DNA from: Candidatus Methanoperedens sp.
GTDB lineage: Archaea; Halobacteriota; Methanosarcinia; Methanosarcinales; Methanoperedenaceae
Length of the DNA stretch: 32,000 bases
Assembly (NCBI GenBank): GCA_041494705.1
Contig: JBGQBI010000001.1
Span: forward strand, 180,001 to 212,000
Direction: 5' to 3'
Shown here: positions 1,314-29,853 of the stretch, one piece after another
Layout: every line of letters begins with the position of its first letter
How positions within the stretch are numbered: position 1 is the first letter of the stretch
Notes under the pieces: model-generated
Database searches by the model: none
The model's input: only the letters and a program-made list of their open reading frames with translations
Told to the model about the DNA's origin: nothing
Position numbers and translations under genes: made by a program

Positions 1314-2141
1314 ATGGGAGAAAAACCAAAGGTTTTTCAGAAAAACAAAAAGATAAAACCCACAGAATTATTTGTCAGTGCCTCACCGAATGCCGTTGAT
1401 AAAGCTATGAAAGCCTCCAGTGACATTGATGAGGCAAAGCTGGGCAAAAATCGAGAAGATGAAAGTATGAAAAGCTTTGAAAAGATGAAAGGAATAGCGG
1501 AAATTATTGTTGGATTGGCGTCATTGTTTGCAATATTACAGTATGTATATTTATTTGCGAATCCACCAATAGCATTATCTATATCTCTTTCTGGAGAGCT
1601 TGGTGTTGATGGCAACAGTTCTGTGATAACGCCAGTCATAAAGTTGGAAAACTTAGGTAAGGAAGTGCCGATAAGATATAGCGTAGGGATTGCAAAAATT
1701 ACGAATCTTTCTGCGTTTGATTCATATTATTCAGAATCACCCACTTTAACAATAAATGCAGCCGAAATCAATACGTGTGGATTTACAAAGTGGTACAATA
1801 AGGGAGCTCTTATTTTTCCAGGTAGTGTTTCTGAGTATAATCTACATAGTGTTTGTTTGAGGGCTTTTCCAAATTTTGCACGTTATGAGATAACTTCAAA
1901 TATTGACATTACGTACAACAATGCAGATTATGATTATGTGATGAGGAGTTGTGATTACTCTGCTACTTATGTAATCAATACTGGAAATGGAAAGGGTTAT
2001 CCTGTAAATGAAAAAAATATTTGTTCTGTAAATATAGAAAATGTTATATTGAATGAGTTGAATGTTATCATAGTTTTGATTATCGTAGCCATTGCCATTA
2101 TTGCCATTATATCATATAGTAAATCGAGGAAAGAAAAATGA
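1314..2141 (+). CDS. Hypothetical membrane-anchored protein (two predicted TM segments flanking a ~170-aa domain)
   Basis: A 275-aa ORF with a Lys-rich N-terminus. Hydrophobic stretches are 'IAEIIVGLASLFAILQYVYLF' and, at the C-terminus, 'LNVIIVLIIVAIAIIAIISY' followed by 'SKSRKEK'. The gene is visibly AT-rich. I recognise no family. Confidence 0.5.
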   Translation: MGEKPKVFQKNKKIKPTELFVSASPNAVDKAMKASSDIDEAKLGKNREDESMKSFEKMKGIAEIIVGLASLFAILQYVYLFANPPIALSISLSGELGVDGNSSVITPVIKLENLGKEVPIRYSVGIAKITNLSAFDSYYSESPTLTINAAEINTCGFTKWYNKGALIFPGSVSEYNLHSVCLRAFPNFARYEITSNIDITYNNADYDYVMRSCDYSATYVINTGNGKGYPVNEKNICSVNIENVILNELNVIIVLIIVAIAIIAIISYSKSRKEK

Positions 2142-13502: not shown

Positions 13503-14606
13503 CTACTTTTCTTTGCTGAATACCGCAGCTCTTGATATTGTTTCATGCGGGAAGGATTCTGCTAAGGCTTCCATTGCTTTTCTTATCGGTTTAACTACTT
13601 CCTGCGGTATGACAGGTGCGGGTTTTGCTTCTCCGGTGAGGAACGGGCATGTTACGCCTGTCAGCACAGCCATCACGCGCACCGCCCCGGTAAGCATCGG
13701 GTCAACCTTGGCTCCCCATATCACCCTTTTGGTATTCGGAACCTTATCCATTATCTGTTCTCCGGCTACAGCCACCTCTTCCAGCGTCAGGTCTTCGCCT
13801 CCCACGATGTGAATGAGTACACCGTATGCTGTCGATATGTCGGTGATATCGAGCAGGGGGGTCGATAACGCCTGCGAGACCGCTTTCTCCACGCGGTTCG
13901 CGCCGTCGCCTTCGCCAATTCCTATCGAGGAAATTCCTCCGCGTTCCATTATGGCGCGAAGGTCGGCATAATCCAGGTTAATAAGGCTCGGCTGGGTTAT
14001 GGCATCTGTCACGTTCTTGACAAAAGAACCTACAAGCGCGTTCGCTACGGCAAGCGCCTCTTTGAGGGGCAGGTTGCCTGCCACTTCCCTGAGTTTTGAA
14101 TTATCAATGACCACTATCGAATCGCAAACCTCGGCTAGTGCTCTTACGGCGTCACGCGCTTTTTCGCGCCTTGTCATTTCAATTGTGAATGGGATTGTAA
14201 CGCATGCAATTGTGAGAGCGCCCGCTTCTCTTCCAACGCCTGCAAAAACCGGGATTGCGCCTGTACCCGAGCCTCCTCCGAGACCTGCTACGAGGAATAG
14301 AAGATTGGTATCTTTCAAATCTTCCTTTATTTCGGCTAAATTCTCCTTTGCAGCTTCAGCTCCTCTTTCAGGGAATCCGCCGCAGCCGTGCCCTTTGCAC
14401 AGCTTCTCACCGAGCAGGATAATTTTATCTGCCCTTGTCATTGTGCTAAGATGCGAAGCATCCGTATTAGCACCGATTATTTTACCGCCGGCGAGTTTCT
14501 TGTCAGCAATCCATGTTACTATGTTGCAGCCAGCACCACCCAGGCCCACAACAGTCACAGATGGGCGTGATGTCTTTACCTTTTCCAATAATTCTTCTCG
14601 AGTCAT
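13503..14606 (-). CDS. ftsZ: FtsZ/tubulin-family GTPase (atypical FtsZ paralogue A)
   Basis: 'VVGLGGAGCNIV' is the T1 loop and 'AGLGGGSGTGAIPV' is the tubulin signature loop. 'NLDYADLRAIM' and 'VIWGAKVD' also fit. It aligns along its whole length with archaeal FtsZ as I remember it. Confidence 0.9.
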   Translation of the reverse strand: MTREELLEKVKTSRPSVTVVGLGGAGCNIVTWIADKKLAGGKIIGANTDASHLSTMTRADKIILLGEKLCKGHGCGGFPERGAEAAKENLAEIKEDLKDTNLLFLVAGLGGGSGTGAIPVFAGVGREAGALTIACVTIPFTIEMTRREKARDAVRALAEVCDSIVVIDNSKLREVAGNLPLKEALAVANALVGSFVKNVTDAITQPSLINLDYADLRAIMERGGISSIGIGEGDGANRVEKAVSQALSTPLLDITDISTAYGVLIHIVGGEDLTLEEVAVAGEQIMDKVPNTKRVIWGAKVDPMLTGAVRVMAVLTGVTCPFLTGEAKPAPVIPQEVVKPIRKAMEALAESFPHETISRAAVFSKEK

Positions 14607-14725
14607 AATCAGCCTCCGCTATTAACTCGTTTTGTTAGTATTTAAGTCTTTTTTTACAATAAAAAACATGAATGATACCACATTTTTATATATACCCAAA
14701 ACATAGAGAGAAAAAGGAGAAGCAA

Positions 14726-15046
14726 ATGATAGAAATTACAGAAGCTGCAGCAGCAGAATTAAAACAATTGCTTGAAAAAGAAAAAAAGACTGACCACGGA
14801 TTACGCGTATTCGCAGCCGGTTTTGGCTGCAGCGGAATACAGTATGGCCTGACGCTTGAAAAATCCCCAAAAAACGAAGATGTTGTTTCGGAAAGTAACG
14901 GAATAAAAATATTCTTCAATAAAGACATCCGGGATGATATCGATGAATTCAAAATCGATTACATCGATAATGAATATGGGAATGGGTTTGTTATAGATAA
15001 TCCCAATGCGGCAAAATGCGGTTCAGGCTGCAGTAGTTGCGGGTGA
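14726..15046 (+). CDS. HesB/IscA-family iron-sulfur cluster insertion protein
   Basis: 'MIEITEAAAAELKQLL', 'GLRVFAAGFGCSGIQYGL' and the C-terminal 'CGSGCSSCG' are typical of A-type carriers. The ATG at 14726 has a GGAG upstream. The ORF-track start at 14672 is probably too long. Confidence 0.85.
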   Translation: MIEITEAAAAELKQLLEKEKKTDHGLRVFAAGFGCSGIQYGLTLEKSPKNEDVVSESNGIKIFFNKDIRDDIDEFKIDYIDNEYGNGFVIDNPNAAKCGSGCSSCG

Positions 15047-15051
15047 GCTGA

Positions 15052-15405
15052 ATGTTCCCGGGTCTTGGCAGGGGCATAAATCCCCGAAAGATGGCTTCGA
15101 TGATGAAGCAGATGGGGATTGACGTAACTGAGATAGAAAATGTTGAAGAGGTGATTATCCGCACACCGCAGAAGGATATTATTTTTAAGGACGCAGAGGT
15201 CTCGATAATGGACGCCAGGGGTATGAAGACCTACCAGATAATTGGAACCCCGCAGGAAGTCATGCGTGAAATCAGGATACCGGATGAAGATGTAAAGCTT
15301 GTGATGGAGCAGGCAAAAACAAATGAGACCGATGCCATGAGCGCGCTTAAGGAATCAAAAGGGGATATTGCCGCAGCTATTTTGAAACTCAGTAGACCCG
15401 GTTAA
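15052..15405 (+). CDS. nac: Nascent polypeptide-associated complex protein (archaeal NAC)
   Basis: 'INPRKMASMMKQMGIDV' opens a NAC domain. The C-terminal UBA-like segment is 'EDVKLVMEQAKTNETDAMSALKESKGDIAAAILKL'. Confidence 0.85.
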   Translation: MFPGLGRGINPRKMASMMKQMGIDVTEIENVEEVIIRTPQKDIIFKDAEVSIMDARGMKTYQIIGTPQEVMREIRIPDEDVKLVMEQAKTNETDAMSALKESKGDIAAAILKLSRPG

Positions 15406-15925
15406 TTTTTAATTTTCTCATTAATGCCCTGATCCTTTGCTTAAAAATCAAAGGGGCAAGGGAACAAATAGAACCCAGAACCGCTCCTGCAATATCAGGC
15501 AGGCCCAATGTTTGTTTAAGGAATTCGTAAAGGGATATTCCCTGTTCGGAAGGCGGGAGAATATCTCCATGCGGGGAGGGAAGTTTTACAAAGTAAAAAA
15601 CAAAAATATATCCAAGAAATAAGGCTATTAAACCAAATAAAATATGTTCTCCGATATTCATTAAAGGTATGTCTTCATTGTATTTTTCATTTTCAGATAT
15701 ACTCCTGGAAAATAGGTTCTTTGCTCCAACGCCAAAGCCCCCGATCAAACCCGCGATGATTCCATCTGCGGGTGTAAAATAGTGGTAATCCAGCGATATT
15801 ATATAACTATAAGCAACCCCGCCATTCAATGAACCGGATAGGCCTAAAATAAGTGATGAACCTATAGATTTAATGAATCTGATTGATCTTGTGAAATAAG
15901 ATTTTTCTGTTATATTTTCTGCCAT
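15389..15925 (-). CDS. Hypothetical multi-pass membrane protein
   Basis: A 178-aa ORF with several Gly-rich hydrophobic segments, for example 'GIIAGLIGGFGVGA' and 'ILFGLIALFLGYIFVFYFV'. It is convergent with nac and overlaps it by 17 nt. No family recognised. Confidence 0.5.
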   Translation of the reverse strand: MAENITEKSYFTRSIRFIKSIGSSLILGLSGSLNGGVAYSYIISLDYHYFTPADGIIAGLIGGFGVGAKNLFSRSISENEKYNEDIPLMNIGEHILFGLIALFLGYIFVFYFVKLPSPHGDILPPSEQGISLYEFLKQTLGLPDIAGAVLGSICSLAPLIFKQRIRALMRKLKINRVY

Positions 15926-16484
15926 TTATTGCTAAACTCCTTTCCTCCAATTTAAACATATTGAATCCCAGGTTCTTCTTCGTTATTAATTCTTTTGAAA
16001 GAGCGTATCCGCAACTCTTATATACGATGGTGTGATAGTGGGGGAAGCCCGGTAATTAAGTTGCCAGGTATATGTAATGAACTTGTGTATAACGAAAACC
16101 ATACGCGAGGGAAAATAAAAACCAACATTTGGCTATTGTCTGATGAATAAACGCTAATTATACATACAAATTGTATAAATTAGAGAGGATTCTGGAAATC
16201 AGTGAATGTTCTGGTTTTTAGCAGTATATAATTAATTAACTCGCATATAAAAAACATATACGAGGGAAAGAGATATATACGGCAAAAAACATATTGTATG
16301 TTTCCTGTGTGATAGCAGGAAAATTGTATTGCAAAATACAAAAATTATTTATCACAATATTAATTCATGGTTAATATTTGGCGTCGGCCCAGATTGTAGG
16401 GAAAACCTGAATGTGAAGGGCTGTCTTCCAACCATGATACATGAAATGGAGACAAGAACGAAGGTTCTCGTCCGACATTGGCGT

Positions 16485-16604: not shown

Positions 16605-18074
<1,470 letters not shown>

Positions 18075-18177: not shown

Positions 18178-18250
18178 GGGCTCGTAGATCAGTTGGAAGA
18201 TCGCCGCCTTTGCAAGGCGGAGGCCCTGGGTTCGAGTCCCAGCGAGTCCA
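18178..18250 (+). tRNA. tRNA-Ala (anticodon TGC) in the 16S-23S spacer
   Basis: The 73 nt fold as a cloverleaf. The acceptor stem is GGGCTCG/CGAGTCC with the G3:U70 alanine identity pair. The anticodon loop is TTTGCAA and the T-loop is TTCGAGT. No CCA is encoded. Confidence 0.95.
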
Positions 18251-18400: not shown

Positions 18401-21327
<2,927 letters not shown>

Positions 21328-21405: not shown

Positions 21406-21538
21406 TCATAAGCGAGTATAGCGGCCAAAGCGGCGGGGAAACACCTGTACCCATCCCGAACACAGAAGTTAAGCCCGCCTACGTTTTGCATTGTACTAAG
21501 ATGTGCGAACTCTCGGGAACTGTAGAAAGCTGCTATGC
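21406..21538 (+). rRNA. rrf: 5S ribosomal RNA
   Basis: The core is 'CCTGTACCCATCCCGAACACAGAAGTTAAGCCC'. A 10-bp helix I forms between GTATAGCGGC (21406-21415) and GCTGCTATGC (21529-21538), including G-U pairs. Confidence 0.85.
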
Positions 21539-22422: not shown

Positions 22423-22496
22423 GCCGTCGTGGCTTAGCTCGGTAAAGCGGCTGATTCGTAATCAGCAGATCGAGGGTTCAAATCCCTCCGACGGCT
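22423..22496 (+). tRNA. tRNA-Thr (anticodon CGT)
   Basis: A 74-nt cloverleaf. The acceptor is GCCGTCG/CGACGGC and the D-arm is GCTT/AAGC. The anticodon stem is GCTGA/TCAGC with loop TTCGTAA, and the T-arm is GAGGG-TTCAAAT-CCCTC. No CCA is encoded. Confidence 0.9.
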
Positions 22497-27026: not shown

Positions 27027-27165
27027 GGTTATGACGATATATATAATTTACGCAGGGTCGATTTTGTTAAGTTAAGGAGTATGGGGTAAAATCAAACTTG
27101 TTTTGTTATCGTTTCAAAGGCAGAGTGGTAGAGGGAAGAAAATTTTTAAGAAAATATAATGTTAT

Positions 27166-28119
27166 TTAATCTTCAAAACCTTCCAATATCCATTCTTTTT
27201 TCTCTTCTAAATTTATTTCGTTAATCGTGGTTGAGAACCTAAATTTAGCAGTAGTAAAAGTGTCCACACGTTTTTTCACTTCATTCGCCAAAGCTTCTTT
27301 GAATTTTCCCTTAATAATTGTTCCAGATTCATCAATTAAAAATCCAAAGGTAAAGTAAAATAAACTTATTTCCTTTATAAATCCTTTATACACAACAGAT
27401 TCCTCTGGAATATTTTCAGCTTGAAGGATAACGTCATATATTCTTTTAGCCAATTCGCTTGAAATTTTTTGTCTCTTAAAATTTCCAGTGGTAACTTTAT
27501 CATACATTATTATGTCAGCCTTGTTTTTATATAAACTCTCGAGAAAATCCCTATATTTAATTATCACTCTTTTTCCTAACTCGTCACTAACCTCCCTAAT
27601 TTTATCCTTATTATCCTCGCATTCAATTAAATCACTAAAGCGTTGAAAAGCCATTTTAGCCGACGAATCTGCAATTTGCGGTTCGTGGCTGGACACTATA
27701 AATCTAAATGACCCTGTTCCTGTAGCGACTAAGTCCAATTGTGATGCTCTAAGGATTTCGTTGGGTATTATTCCTTTGAATGTAGCTTTTCCAGACAAAG
27801 ACTGGGATATTGAGGACACAATATCTTGTAGATTGCCCATAAGATTCCCAAAGAACGATAGCGAAATTCTATGCCCTTCCACAGGAGCCCCATCTATAAT
27901 GAAGTCAAAACTATCGAATTGGAATCTTTCAAAGGAATTTCGTAATTCTAATAACAAGTATGCTTCTCTGTCCTTAAAATTTCGCTGTCGCACTCTTAAT
28001 GAAAATTTATTGGAATATTTTGATAGTAATATTTCATTTTCTCGTATCAACTCATATAAATCTGAGAGTTCTTCTAGAATTAAGGTGGGACGCCTCTGAT
28101 TATTATTCATGGCTTTCAT
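27166..28119 (-). CDS. Orphan 317-aa protein, last gene of the low-GC cassette
   Basis: A long uninterrupted ORF in an approximately 30% GC region. It overlaps the upstream NTase-like gene by 17 nt, or by 8 nt if M4 is the start. It has no TM segments and no motif I can assign. Confidence 0.7.
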   Translation of the reverse strand: MKAMNNNQRRPTLILEELSDLYELIRENEILLSKYSNKFSLRVRQRNFKDREAYLLLELRNSFERFQFDSFDFIIDGAPVEGHRISLSFFGNLMGNLQDIVSSISQSLSGKATFKGIIPNEILRASQLDLVATGTGSFRFIVSSHEPQIADSSAKMAFQRFSDLIECEDNKDKIREVSDELGKRVIIKYRDFLESLYKNKADIIMYDKVTTGNFKRQKISSELAKRIYDVILQAENIPEESVVYKGFIKEISLFYFTFGFLIDESGTIIKGKFKEALANEVKKRVDTFTTAKFRFSTTINEINLEEKKEWILEGFED

Positions 28120-28732
28120 CCCTTTGATAATTTTCTATGTAAGACACGGTATTCGATAAATCTATTTCAAGTATACCTTTCGGGTTGTTGTTTCTATCGT
28201 GCCCTAAATATTTTTTCCAAAATTCGATTTCTCTGACGCTAGCGACATAATCTTCTGGAGATTCGCTAGTATATACTACAATAGTTGCTAGAATGTGACA
28301 CATAAATTCAGATTTTACCCTTGTTTTATCAGTCACTCGCCAATAAGTATCCTGTCCCGCCTCATCAAGTTCATCGAGTTTATTTGCATCCAAATGGTTG
28401 ATAATATCTATATCTGTGGGGTCGTTCTTATTTGTCGTATAACTTCCATTGAGCCATTGCTTCGAGCAAATATTTAGAGAAACCAATTCTTTGCAATAAT
28501 TAACATAGCCATCGAATATCCTAGCACGAGTGGATGAACCATTGAAATTTAAAACACAGTGCTCTTCAATTTCAGTGGCATTTGTGACTACAATCCCTGG
28601 AGGCAAATTTCCATTACTGTCAAAATCAGGAATCATTATTTTCGACCATACCACAACATTATAACAAACAACTCTAATGTTTTTGTTATATAAATAATTG
28701 TACCCACTCCCACTAGCATATTTCAAGCTCAT
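28103..28732 (-). CDS. Minimal nucleotidyltransferase-like protein (pol-beta superfamily NTase fold; DUF6932-like from memory)
   Basis: 'NGSYTTNKNDPTDIDI' fits G-S-x9-D-x-D. 'MIPDFDSNGNLPPGI' and the C-terminal 'NPKGILEIDL' resemble an uncharacterised NTase-like family. That family usually starts at the 'MIPDF' position, so the ATG at 28636 is an alternative start. Confidence 0.6.
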   Translation of the reverse strand: MSLKYASGSGYNYLYNKNIRVVCYNVVVWSKIMIPDFDSNGNLPPGIVVTNATEIEEHCVLNFNGSSTRARIFDGYVNYCKELVSLNICSKQWLNGSYTTNKNDPTDIDIINHLDANKLDELDEAGQDTYWRVTDKTRVKSEFMCHILATIVVYTSESPEDYVASVREIEFWKKYLGHDRNNNPKGILEIDLSNTVSYIENYQRDESHE

Positions 28733-28735
28733 GTT

Positions 28736-28894
28736 TTATATATTATAAATCCCGCCATACTTTACTATGTTGTTTCTTACTGCCTCTTTTACAAATTCTT
28801 GGATTGAAACAAATCCAAGCCGTTTATCAGTTTCAATAATTCTCTTAGCTTCGTTTATCATCAGAATCCGCAGGGTCAGGATTAATAAAATCAA
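28736..28894 (-). CDS. Unlisted small ORF, ribbon-helix-helix (CopG/Arc-like) candidate
   Basis: My own translation of the minus strand gives '(M)ILLILTLRILMINEAKRIIETDKRLGFVSIQEFVKEAVRNNIVKYGGIYNI*'. 'LTLRI' would be the beta-strand and 'GFVSIQEFVKEAVR' looks like RHH helix 2. Candidate starts are the ATG at 28861 (41 aa) and a TTG at 28894 that overlaps the stop of the GXGXG gene (TTGA). The stop (28736-28738) lies 3 nt before the ATG at 28732. Confidence 0.35.
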   Translation of the reverse strand: MILLILTLRILMINEAKRIIETDKRLGFVSIQEFVKEAVRNNIVKYGGIYNI

Positions 28895-29853
28895 TCCACT
28901 TTTCTCACAACTACCGACCCATCCCTCATCCGTACCAGCCTCTCCCTCACGAGCCCATACTTGTGATAGCCCATAGCCTCAACATGCCCTATATCAAGAT
29001 ATTTCATCAACAGCTTCGCATCCTCCTGCGCCATCGCAAGCTCCTCCACAGGCGGCGCGGTCTTTACCTTCTTCTTAGCAAAAATCGCCCCGTCCTTCAT
29101 ATTCGCTCCCACGAAGCCTTTCGCATCCTTCAAAATCAGCACTCCTTTTTTCATGTACGCGCCTGCAAATTCGCCAGCCGTGCCTTCGACGATAACTGTT
29201 CCTCCGTCAAGATGCGCACCCGTGTTCATACCTGCGTCTCCCATGACATGAACCGTTCCTTTTTGCATCAACAGCCCCGTGCCGTTGTAAACATCCCCGT
29301 CCACAGCGACAAGTGCATCACAATTACACCGCGCCGCTATTGTACCGCGAAGCACTCCGTCATCAAGCAGCAAATGCTTTTCTCGCTCATCGAAGTTATT
29401 CTTAATAAGAACATCTTTTCCCAAACCCGCGCAGAGGCTGTCGGTTATTGAGCGGAACTTTCGATAACCAGGCTCATCAGACATAACCTCGACCACATTT
29501 CCGACAGGTTCTTCCACGACGCCTTTCACATATATTTCCCCGGAAACCATACCCATTCCCATTTCGGAAGAAACATCACCATCGACATACACTTTCCCGG
29601 CCTTTTCAGGCGCCCCGGTACCCCCGAAATGCGCAAGGTCAACGCCCATGCTGTAAGCAAGCCTTTTTCCTGCGCTGCCTGTAATATGCACATCGCGCGC
29701 ATTTCTTAATTCATTTACGAGGTCTTTATAGGTGTAATTTGTTCTTTTTTGGGACGGGATTGGGTTTTCCGGGCGAATCCTGGTGCCCTGCCATGTGAAA
29801 TTATAGGTATAATCGCAGAGGTTATCAATCCTTTCGGTCAGTTCAAGTTCCAT
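28891..29853 (-). CDS. GXGXG-repeat protein (glutamate synthase domain-3 / FwdC-like beta-helix)
   Basis: Repeated G-x-G-x-G strands: 'HITGSAGKRLAYSMG', 'VYVDGDVSSEMGMGMVSGEIYVKG', 'VHVMGDAGMNTGAHLDGGTVIVEGTAGEFAGAYMKKGVLIL'. It starts 2 nt after the stop of the upstream FtsZ-like gene. Confidence 0.8.
   Translation of the reverse strand: MELELTERIDNLCDYTYNFTWQGTRIRPENPIPSQKRTNYTYKDLVNELRNARDVHITGSAGKRLAYSMGVDLAHFGGTGAPEKAGKVYVDGDVSSEMGMGMVSGEIYVKGVVEEPVGNVVEVMSDEPGYRKFRSITDSLCAGLGKDVLIKNNFDEREKHLLLDDGVLRGTIAARCNCDALVAVDGDVYNGTGLLMQKGTVHVMGDAGMNTGAHLDGGTVIVEGTAGEFAGAYMKKGVLILKDAKGFVGANMKDGAIFAKKKVKTAPPVEELAMAQEDAKLLMKYLDIGHVEAMGYHKYGLVRERLVRMRDGSVVVRKVD

Follow-up and report, generated by a model that had tools for sequence, protein, structure and literature searches.

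A horizontally acquired two-gene module of Candidatus Methanoperedens matches the phage defence candidate PDC-M63

PDC-M63 is a "phage defence candidate" of PADLOC-DB v2 (cassette CAS_00189, FAM_00167>>FAM_00523) and one of 145 computational candidates that were picked out by "guilt-by-embedding" in BREX, DISARM or type I restriction-modification (RM) loci (Payne et al. 2024, bioRxiv 10.1101/2024.01.29.577857). Its larger protein has no Pfam family, and the candidate has neither a solved structure nor a validated function. A pair of genes that matches this candidate, consisting of a minimal nucleotidyltransferase (NTase) gene, here called A, and its downstream partner, B, is located in the window analysed here, a stretch of 32,000 nt from Candidatus Methanoperedens sp. 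(GenBank assembly GCA_041494705.1, contig JBGQBI010000001.1, positions 180,001 to 212,000). What the comparison adds to PDC-M63 is the dependence of B on A, the exchange of B for helix-turn-helix proteins of the XRE type (XRE-HTH) as partners of A, and an OB fold in B without conserved catalytic residues. Also new are the occupation of the rexAB slot in lambdoid phages, which suggests where and how the pair may be tested, and the extension of the family to archaea of the Methanosarcinales type, among which it travels as a unit of 1.5 kb.

Both proteins match the respective PADLOC profiles. Protein A aligns with PDC-M63A (PDLC04744; E = 4.1e-24) over positions 10-150 of the 152-position profile. 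The match of protein B to PDC-M63B (PDLC04747; E = 8.6e-8) is weak and nearly full length, with B residues 16-310 on positions 9-303 of 309. The homologous proteins of phage mEpX1, gp42 and gp41, match PDC-M63A and PDC-M63B at 2e-41 and 7.5e-45. The two genes are adjacent on the same strand with A in first position, which is the arrangement of PDC-M63. The agreement includes both protein families, their order, strand and overlap, and the location of homologous modules next to, or embedded among, defence genes such as those of RM type I. By contrast, B of the window shares only 14% identity with mEpX1 gp41 (PADLOC E-value, rounded, 9e-8), and its host is a Methanosarcinales-type archaeon. The profile matches thus identify the pair as a divergent archaeal member of PDC-M63. 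An earlier note on this DNA had stated that the locus matches no named system; because the pair is already listed as PDC-M63, it does not represent a new kind of system, and that claim of novelty fails.

Protein A belongs to the Pfam family DUF6932 (PF22014; 4.1e-28 over the whole profile) and matches phrog_9194 (4e-30); a profile search retrieved more than 750 homologues from archaea and bacteria. It contains the G-S-x9-D-x-D motif of minimal NTases (NGSYTTNKNDPTDIDI) and the elements FDSNGNLPPG and PKGILEIDL, all of which are conserved motifs of DUF6932. The earlier note had recognized the three motifs and assigned the middle protein to an uncharacterised family of minimal NTase-like proteins, and it was right in both respects. 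Among 58 diverse DUF6932 sequences, G9, R37, G64-S65, P73, D75 and D77 are invariant, and K70, D147-R148 and K153-G154 are at least 90% conserved. Protein A retains every family-invariant NTase residue, and the general pattern hG[GS] plus [DE]h[DE]h is represented by NGS (G64, S65) and DIDI (D75, D77). In the AlphaFold2 (AF2) model (pLDDT 96), the G-S and DxD motifs sit on strands E57-63 and E76-83, and the strand order is consistent with a minimal NTase. The best matches in a Foldseek search of the PDB are the minimal NTases 2rff and 1no5 (HI0073), the MNT antitoxins 7ae2 and 8xeo, and AadA, all at weak E-values. Judging from conserved residues and model, A looks active as an NTase.

Protein B, which had been regarded as an orphan, is a member of a large family. 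Its profile matches 1187 clusters (50% identity) at E ≤ 1e-3 and 411 at E ≤ 1e-10, with relatives that are mostly 305-335 aa long, and it has a phrog match (phrog_18731; 6e-12) in addition to that in PADLOC. No Pfam family matches B or the core regions of its relatives, and the absence of HEPN matches in Pfam and PADLOC for B and 80 family members agrees with the earlier statement that the partner is not HEPN. A hidden Markov model (HMM) of the family, built from 110 sequences with phage sequences excluded, matches mEpX1 gp41 at 100 bits, and hhalign links the archaeal B to the same protein (E = 5e-4, 279 collinear columns). Neither a tblastn search of a phage collection with the archaeal B nor a scan of viral contigs with its alignment gave a match, and the phage link of the archaeal pair was obtained only via A and by profile methods.

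The AF2 model of B (pLDDT 81) begins with a helical (coiled-coil) hairpin (residues 11-65), continues with an alpha/beta domain (70-235) and closes with a barrel (240-316) of the order b1-b2-b3-a-b4-b5, as in OB folds. Fold matches of the barrel in PDB and BFVD are the OB domains of SSB, CusF/SilF, ExoVII and cold-shock proteins, so that B is modelled to end in an OB-fold-like barrel. A full-length structural relative of B was not found in the PDB, and neither its narrow nor its broad profile matched a relative among PDB sequences. Across the family, only Q98, G136-S137-F138, G182, Y189 and G246 stand out, a conservation pattern unlike that of an enzyme active site, by which B looks non-enzymatic. 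In a group of longer relatives of B (about 400 aa; P0202, P0236, P0247, P0264, P0274 and BFVD entry A0A8S5QA00), an N-terminal DUF6575 replaces the helical hairpin; some of them occur in phage genomes. Inspection by eye did not support these proteins as A-B fusions, because DUF6575 lacks the GS/DxD motif. Residues 62-146 of mEpX1 gp41 are shared with another PADLOC profile, PDC-M32A.

The resemblance of the pair to better-known systems is functional or positional only. The HEPN-MNT systems, type VII toxin-antitoxin (TA) systems of, e.g., Aphanizomenon and Shewanella (PDB 7ae2, 8xeh), also encode a small Pol-beta-type NTase with a G-S...D-x-D motif just upstream of the partner, and the fold search placed MNTs among the top matches of A. 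By contrast, B is without a HEPN match and is modelled as an alpha/beta domain plus OB fold, whereas A has family-specific N-terminal (FDxNGNLPPG) and C-terminal (DRxxNxKGI) elements and pairs also with XRE-HTH proteins. In AbiE and MenAT, an NTase-fold toxin and its cognate partner reportedly constitute an abortive-infection or TA module, a logic that resembles the mechanism proposed below for A and B. However, A matches only DUF6932 in Pfam and PDC-M63A in PADLOC and not DUF1814; it is about half the size, its gene comes first, and its partner lacks the winged HTH of AbiEi. An assignment to CBASS was likewise rejected, as no PADLOC model of CBASS matched; with 177 aa, A is without the C-terminal lobe of the CD-NTases, and in a comparison of its profile with PDB sequences only the GS..DxD region of CD-NTases aligned (E = 0.2). 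RexAB of phage lambda shares with the A-B pairs of three lambdoid phages the position just downstream of cI on the same strand; neither A nor B matched RexA or RexB in Pfam or in the PDB fold searches, and the analogy is purely positional.

The linkage of the two genes is strict on the side of B. Among the fetched loci, 26 contain B, and A is located immediately upstream in 25 of them; the contig of the 26th stops short of that position. Seven distinct B loci were retrieved through B and are therefore unbiased as to A, whereas four others (mEpX1, Methanoculleus bourgensis, Labilibaculum and Methanosarcina sp. MTP4) were retrieved through A. The linkage extends over Methanosarcinales, Methanoculleus, Methanosarcina MTP4, Bacteroidota and lambdoid phages, and the neighbourhood comparison of B and the NTase gene, proposed in the earlier note, gave conserved linkage in 25 of 25 complete loci. 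Protein A, by contrast, has other partners. In 53 of the approximately 78 bacterial loci retrieved through A, mainly of Cyanobacteria, it is followed by an overlapping gene for an XRE-HTH protein; the alignment used here was a narrower one and biased the retrieval towards Cyanobacteria. These partners (140-210 aa) form one family with a C-terminal HTH that is unrelated to B; the cyanobacterial partner is not a shortened B according to a comparison by hhalign (probability 1%). The dependence of B on A is thus strict, whereas A exchanges B for XRE-HTH regulators.

Several cyanobacterial genomes encode multiple copies of DUF6932 paired with XRE-HTH proteins of about 175-190 aa (loci L020-L097, e.g., L043, L076, L085 and L094); Calothrix sp. 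NIES-4105 has three copies on the chromosome and one on a plasmid. These pairs look like an undescribed TA-like family. A third partner arrangement is found in Streptococcus phage MissE1 (L099, 2204-3511), where the DUF6932 gene is followed by a 55-aa open reading frame (ORF) and an ImmA/IrrE metallopeptidase gene; the locus adjoins a RelE/ParE toxin gene and an integrase gene. FAM_00167, which from the cassette order is presumed to be the DUF6932 component of PDC-M63, occurs also in a commoner cassette, CAS_00073 (FAM_00167>>FAM_01519), which was rejected by the authors and may represent the pair of DUF6932 and HTH proteins; the counts in the flattened table are 269 or 259 beside CAS_00073 and 45 or 43 beside PDC-M63 (Payne et al. 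2024, supplement file 8).

The A-B pair of the window is located on acquired DNA. A metagenome contig (L103), found by a scan with the GXGXG protein, encodes proteins that are 76-90% identical to those of the window in the order FtsZ-like, GXGXG, aroA', aroB'; its GXGXG gene and aroA' are only 52 nt apart. The DNA match between window and contig ends at 28898 and restarts at 27050; where the window has 1847 nt, the contig has 28 nt. On the evidence of this empty site, the block is of foreign origin and entered by horizontal transfer, with aroA'/aroB' on one side and the FtsZ-like/GXGXG operon on the other. The composition of the segment is in agreement. Its GC content (0.338) is the lowest of all stretches of the same length in the window (mean elsewhere 0.463, standard deviation 0.039, z = -3.2; next-lowest value 0.378), its tetranucleotide distance from the rest of the window is the largest among such stretches, and GC at third codon positions is 0.30-0.34 in the three ORFs of the island compared with 0.49-0.59 in four flanking genes. 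The flanks are housekeeping genes, encoding an FtsZ-like protein, the GXGXG protein and a DeoC-type AroA'. In the JGI annotation of the source, a metagenome contig of 2.07 Mb, the next gene downstream of aroA' has the Pfam domain DHQS. No terminal direct or inverted repeats, target-site duplication, integrase gene or tRNA gene were found at the boundaries of the segment. The earlier note had called the block compositionally foreign on the strength of hand counts (18/60, 28/60 and 35/60 G+C); the counts were exact upon recounting, the GC dip exceeds the normal variation within the window, and the interpretation stands.

The insertion also changed the final codons and the stop codon of the GXGXG gene (28891-28898 compared with 2286-2300 of L103), so that the protein ends in ...RKVD* in the window and in ...RKVGE* in the uninterrupted contig. 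The TTG start of a small ORF upstream of A overlaps the new TGA stop codon of the GXGXG gene (TTGA).

Homologous pairs are found in TA- and defence-type contexts. Their neighbours comprise AIPR and ParE at one locus; a Gabija-like OLD-TOPRIM/UvrD pair, TIR/SEFIR and SLFN_AlbA_2 at another; and at further loci AAA_15/21 ATPases with a DDE transposase and RadC, UPF0175 with a ResIII helicase, or an S24 repressor with HipA. RM type I genes (HsdR/HsdM) are neighbours elsewhere. In three lambdoid phages, namely mEpX1, Erwinia phage vB_EhrS_59 and PhiR30_1, the gene just before the pair, on the same strand, is that of the cI repressor. The pair thus fills the slot that rexAB occupies in lambda, a classical location of exclusion genes. 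Among 5426 complete E. coli genomes, 18 contain a pair of the mEpX1 type.

The interpretation favoured here, with a probability of roughly 0.55, is that the window contains an acquired PDC-M63 pair that functions as a conflict module of the TA or abortive-infection type, with A as the effector, B as its regulator or sensor, and the small ORF excluded. As suggested by the genomic context, the module would protect the host, or a resident prophage, against viruses. A would be a catalytically competent NTase that, once activated, modifies a cellular target (tRNA, for instance, or another macromolecule) by nucleotide transfer, in the manner of the MenT/AbiEii toxins. B would be an A-specific regulator that restrains A and reacts to a signal of infection, plausibly a single-stranded nucleic acid bound by its OB fold. 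A is cast as the effector because it is the constant element and is elsewhere paired with XRE-HTH proteins, a classic type of antitoxin, and B as the regulator because it never occurs alone, shows no conservation of a catalytic kind, and has a nucleic-acid-binding fold at its C-terminus. The earlier reading of the locus as TA- or abortive-infection-like thus survives with regard to the contexts of its homologues but not with regard to its three-gene architecture.

Several observations weigh against this interpretation. At position 114 of A, where strand E113-121 starts and the third metal ligand is expected, the 58 family sequences have D (29 sequences), H (23) or E (6); the window protein has the non-canonical His, although all three residues can bind metal. 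The fold matches of A are statistically weak (best E = 0.027, TM 0.2-0.4). The roles of effector and regulator were derived solely from the logic of partner swapping and are assigned with lower confidence. In HEPN-MNT, the best-studied MNT system, it is the NTase that serves as the antitoxin. In the window, the module is a single insertion amid housekeeping genes, outside any defence island. Moreover, PDC-M63 is itself only a computational candidate, and its single test in a native host, the deletion of PDC-M63AB from a prophage of E. coli NILS69, was negative, leaving infectivity unchanged for 10 of 10 phages (PMC12409345). This deletion is the sole experimental mention of PDC-M63 found in the literature; the search returned no paper mentioning DUF6932, nothing functional on the genes of mEpX1, and nothing specific in the DefensePredictor preprint and a BREX survey.

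A bolder version, which is put forward only tentatively, would make PDC-M63 a mechanistically new immune module of lambdoid prophages, Bacteroidota, and methanogenic and methanotrophic archaea, in which B, as an OB-fold sensor, controls a DUF6932 toxin, with the same toxin being coupled to XRE-HTH antitoxins in Cyanobacteria. If true, DUF6932 would join DUF1814 (MenT/AbiEii) and the MNT/HEPN partners as a third lineage of toxins with an NTase fold, and the window would supply an archaeal representative; validation of the pair would add a defence lineage with NTase toxins that is shared by bacteria, phages and archaea.

The roles may also be reversed, as in the type VII TA logic of HEPN-MNT. 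B would then be a toxic effector and A an antitoxin that nucleotidylylates B, e.g., on Ser137 or Tyr189, and infection or the loss of A would set B free. The position of A upstream of, and overlapping with, B corresponds to that of MNT relative to HEPN. The best structural matches of A include the MNT antitoxins 7ae2, 7ae9, 8xeh and 8xeo, B has a 98%-conserved Ser (Ser137) and an 83%-conserved Tyr (Tyr189) without obvious catalytic residues, and it is not seen without A, as expected of a toxin that needs its antitoxin. Nevertheless, this arrangement is unlikely, because neither a HEPN nor any other recognisable toxin domain is present in B, the model of B (coiled coil, alpha/beta domain and OB fold) resembles a binder more than an enzyme, and the wide pairing of A with non-toxic XRE-HTH proteins fits poorly with a dedicated antitoxin.

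Another possibility is that the pair is a selfish addiction module, which by post-segregational killing secures only its own maintenance and that of the mobile DNA around it and has no antiviral role. The multiple copies of DUF6932 and HTH genes in cyanobacterial genomes and plasmids, the movement of the module as a compact unit between different contexts, and the negative outcome of the sole phage-defence test would be in agreement with such a function. Against it stand the repeated proximity of the module to genes of RM type I, Gabija-like, AIPR and TIR systems, its place behind cI, in the slot of rexAB, in three lambdoid phages, and the initial detection of PDC-M63 through its embedding in loci of BREX, DISARM or RM type I. 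A purely selfish role is therefore considered rather improbable, also because addiction and defence can coexist.

The third ORF of the island is not part of the conserved cargo. The earlier note had described a three-gene cassette of a ribbon-helix-helix (RHH)-like protein, an NTase-like protein and a large orphan; on such a reading, the small protein would be an RHH repressor that autoregulates an operon of the NTase and a large orphan effector. The small ORF does lie within the inserted DNA, directly upstream on the same strand, with only 3 nt to the ATG at 28732; the JGI annotation includes it as a 41-aa gene, and its C-terminal half (GFVSIQEFVKEAVRNNI) recalls, by eye only, the second helix of RHH proteins. 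However, Pfam yielded no match for the small ORF up to E ≤ 10, and the sequences of solved structures (PDB) yielded no meaningful one, so that the RHH-like label is based only on this visual likeness. Homologues are absent from the 147 fetched loci, except for contigs of the same organism, and the genes upstream of other A-B pairs are variable or absent, with no conserved operon association. Two metagenome contigs contain closely related modules in other surroundings, L017 (89% DNA identity; adjoining a divergently oriented HsdM N-terminus) and L140 (92%; adjoining a gene for a SWIM zinc-finger protein). Their homology to the window extends only from 28652 (weakly from 28728) down to 27168-27181; it covers the NTase gene with a leader of about 90 nt and the 317-aa gene, and ends before the small ORF. 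Because the small ORF is missing from all homologous modules, the unit is not a three-gene system; the conserved cargo is the two-gene A-B module, the RHH identity is not supported, and even the reality of the small gene is doubtful. An autoregulated three-gene operon is accordingly very improbable, all the more so as the start that is conserved in the family of A puts about 99 nt, with TATA-like boxes, between the small ORF and A.

Contigs of about 2 kb that contain little beyond A and B recur among the assemblies (L011, 1939 nt; L017, 2071 nt; L140, 2096 nt; the contig of P0001, 1961 nt). They are to be expected if assemblies break at the module borders, because the flanks vary within populations.

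A non-conflict function as a two-subunit enzyme for the repair or tailing of RNA or DNA, in which the OB fold of B delivers the substrate to A, would explain the combination of NTase and OB fold, the strict co-occurrence of B with A, and the presence among the fold matches of A of 1no5, whose system HI0073/HI0074 was originally read as a two-protein NTase, but is hardly credible in view of the patchy and mobile distribution and foreign composition of the pair, its absence from a sister genome, its location in prophage immunity regions and defence islands, and the lack of conserved linkage to a housekeeping pathway.

The coordinates of the features in the island (Table 1) include all three ORFs as originally described, with an overlap of 17 nt between A and B (8 nt if counted from Met4 of B) and the 3-nt gap between the small ORF and the longest form of A. 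The most likely start of A is Met33, because the homologues begin at MIPxFD, and B probably starts at the family-conserved Met4. Of the tight packing that had been noted for the three ORFs, the overlap of A and B therefore remains, whereas the small ORF and the NTase gene are separated by about 99 nt if A starts at Met33. From their sequence, we infer that both TATA-like boxes in this region are putative archaeal promoter elements; the assignment goes no further because AT-rich DNA yields such matches by chance. The stretch around the box closest to A (28652-28728) is still 76% identical in L017. A T-rich tract directly past the stop codon of B is a possible archaeal oligo-T terminator.

Table 1. 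Features of the acquired segment and its A-B module (positions in the 32,000-nt window)
Feature	Coordinates	Strand	Description
Inserted low-GC segment	27051..28897	n/a	1847 nt; breakpoints of DNA homology with contig L103
T-rich tract attatattttcttaaaaattttcttccc	27133..27160	-	Directly past the stop codon of B; read from sequence; possible terminator
Gene B	27166..28119	-	PDC-M63B-family protein, 317 aa, or 314 aa from probable start Met4 at 28110
Gene A	28103..28636	-	DUF6932 minimal nucleotidyltransferase, 177 aa from most likely start Met33 (ATG 28636); longest ORF 28103-28732 (209 aa)
TATA-like box TTTATATA	28687..28694	-	Precedes the probable start of A by about 50 nt; read from sequence; putative promoter element
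Small ORF	28736..28894	-	52 aa from TTG, or 41 aa from ATG 28861; within the insertion, outside the conserved module
Second TATA-like box TTTATAAT	28742-28749	-	Read from sequence; putative promoter element

Other parts of the window also differ in composition. The stretch with the second-lowest GC content (14568-16414; 0.378) is located directly upstream of the rRNA operon and contains an Fe-S biosynthesis gene, a gene for a NAC-domain protein, and a 178-aa ORF on the minus strand (15389-15925) without a Pfam match. Another low-GC patch (0.35 at 1501-2000) coincides with a 275-aa ORF (1314-2141, plus strand) that likewise has no Pfam match. The archaeal rRNA operon is complete, with genes for the small-subunit rRNA (16606-18074), a spacer tRNA (18178-18250), the large-subunit rRNA (18401-21326) and the 5S rRNA (21417-21538), and is followed by an additional tRNA gene at 22423-22496.

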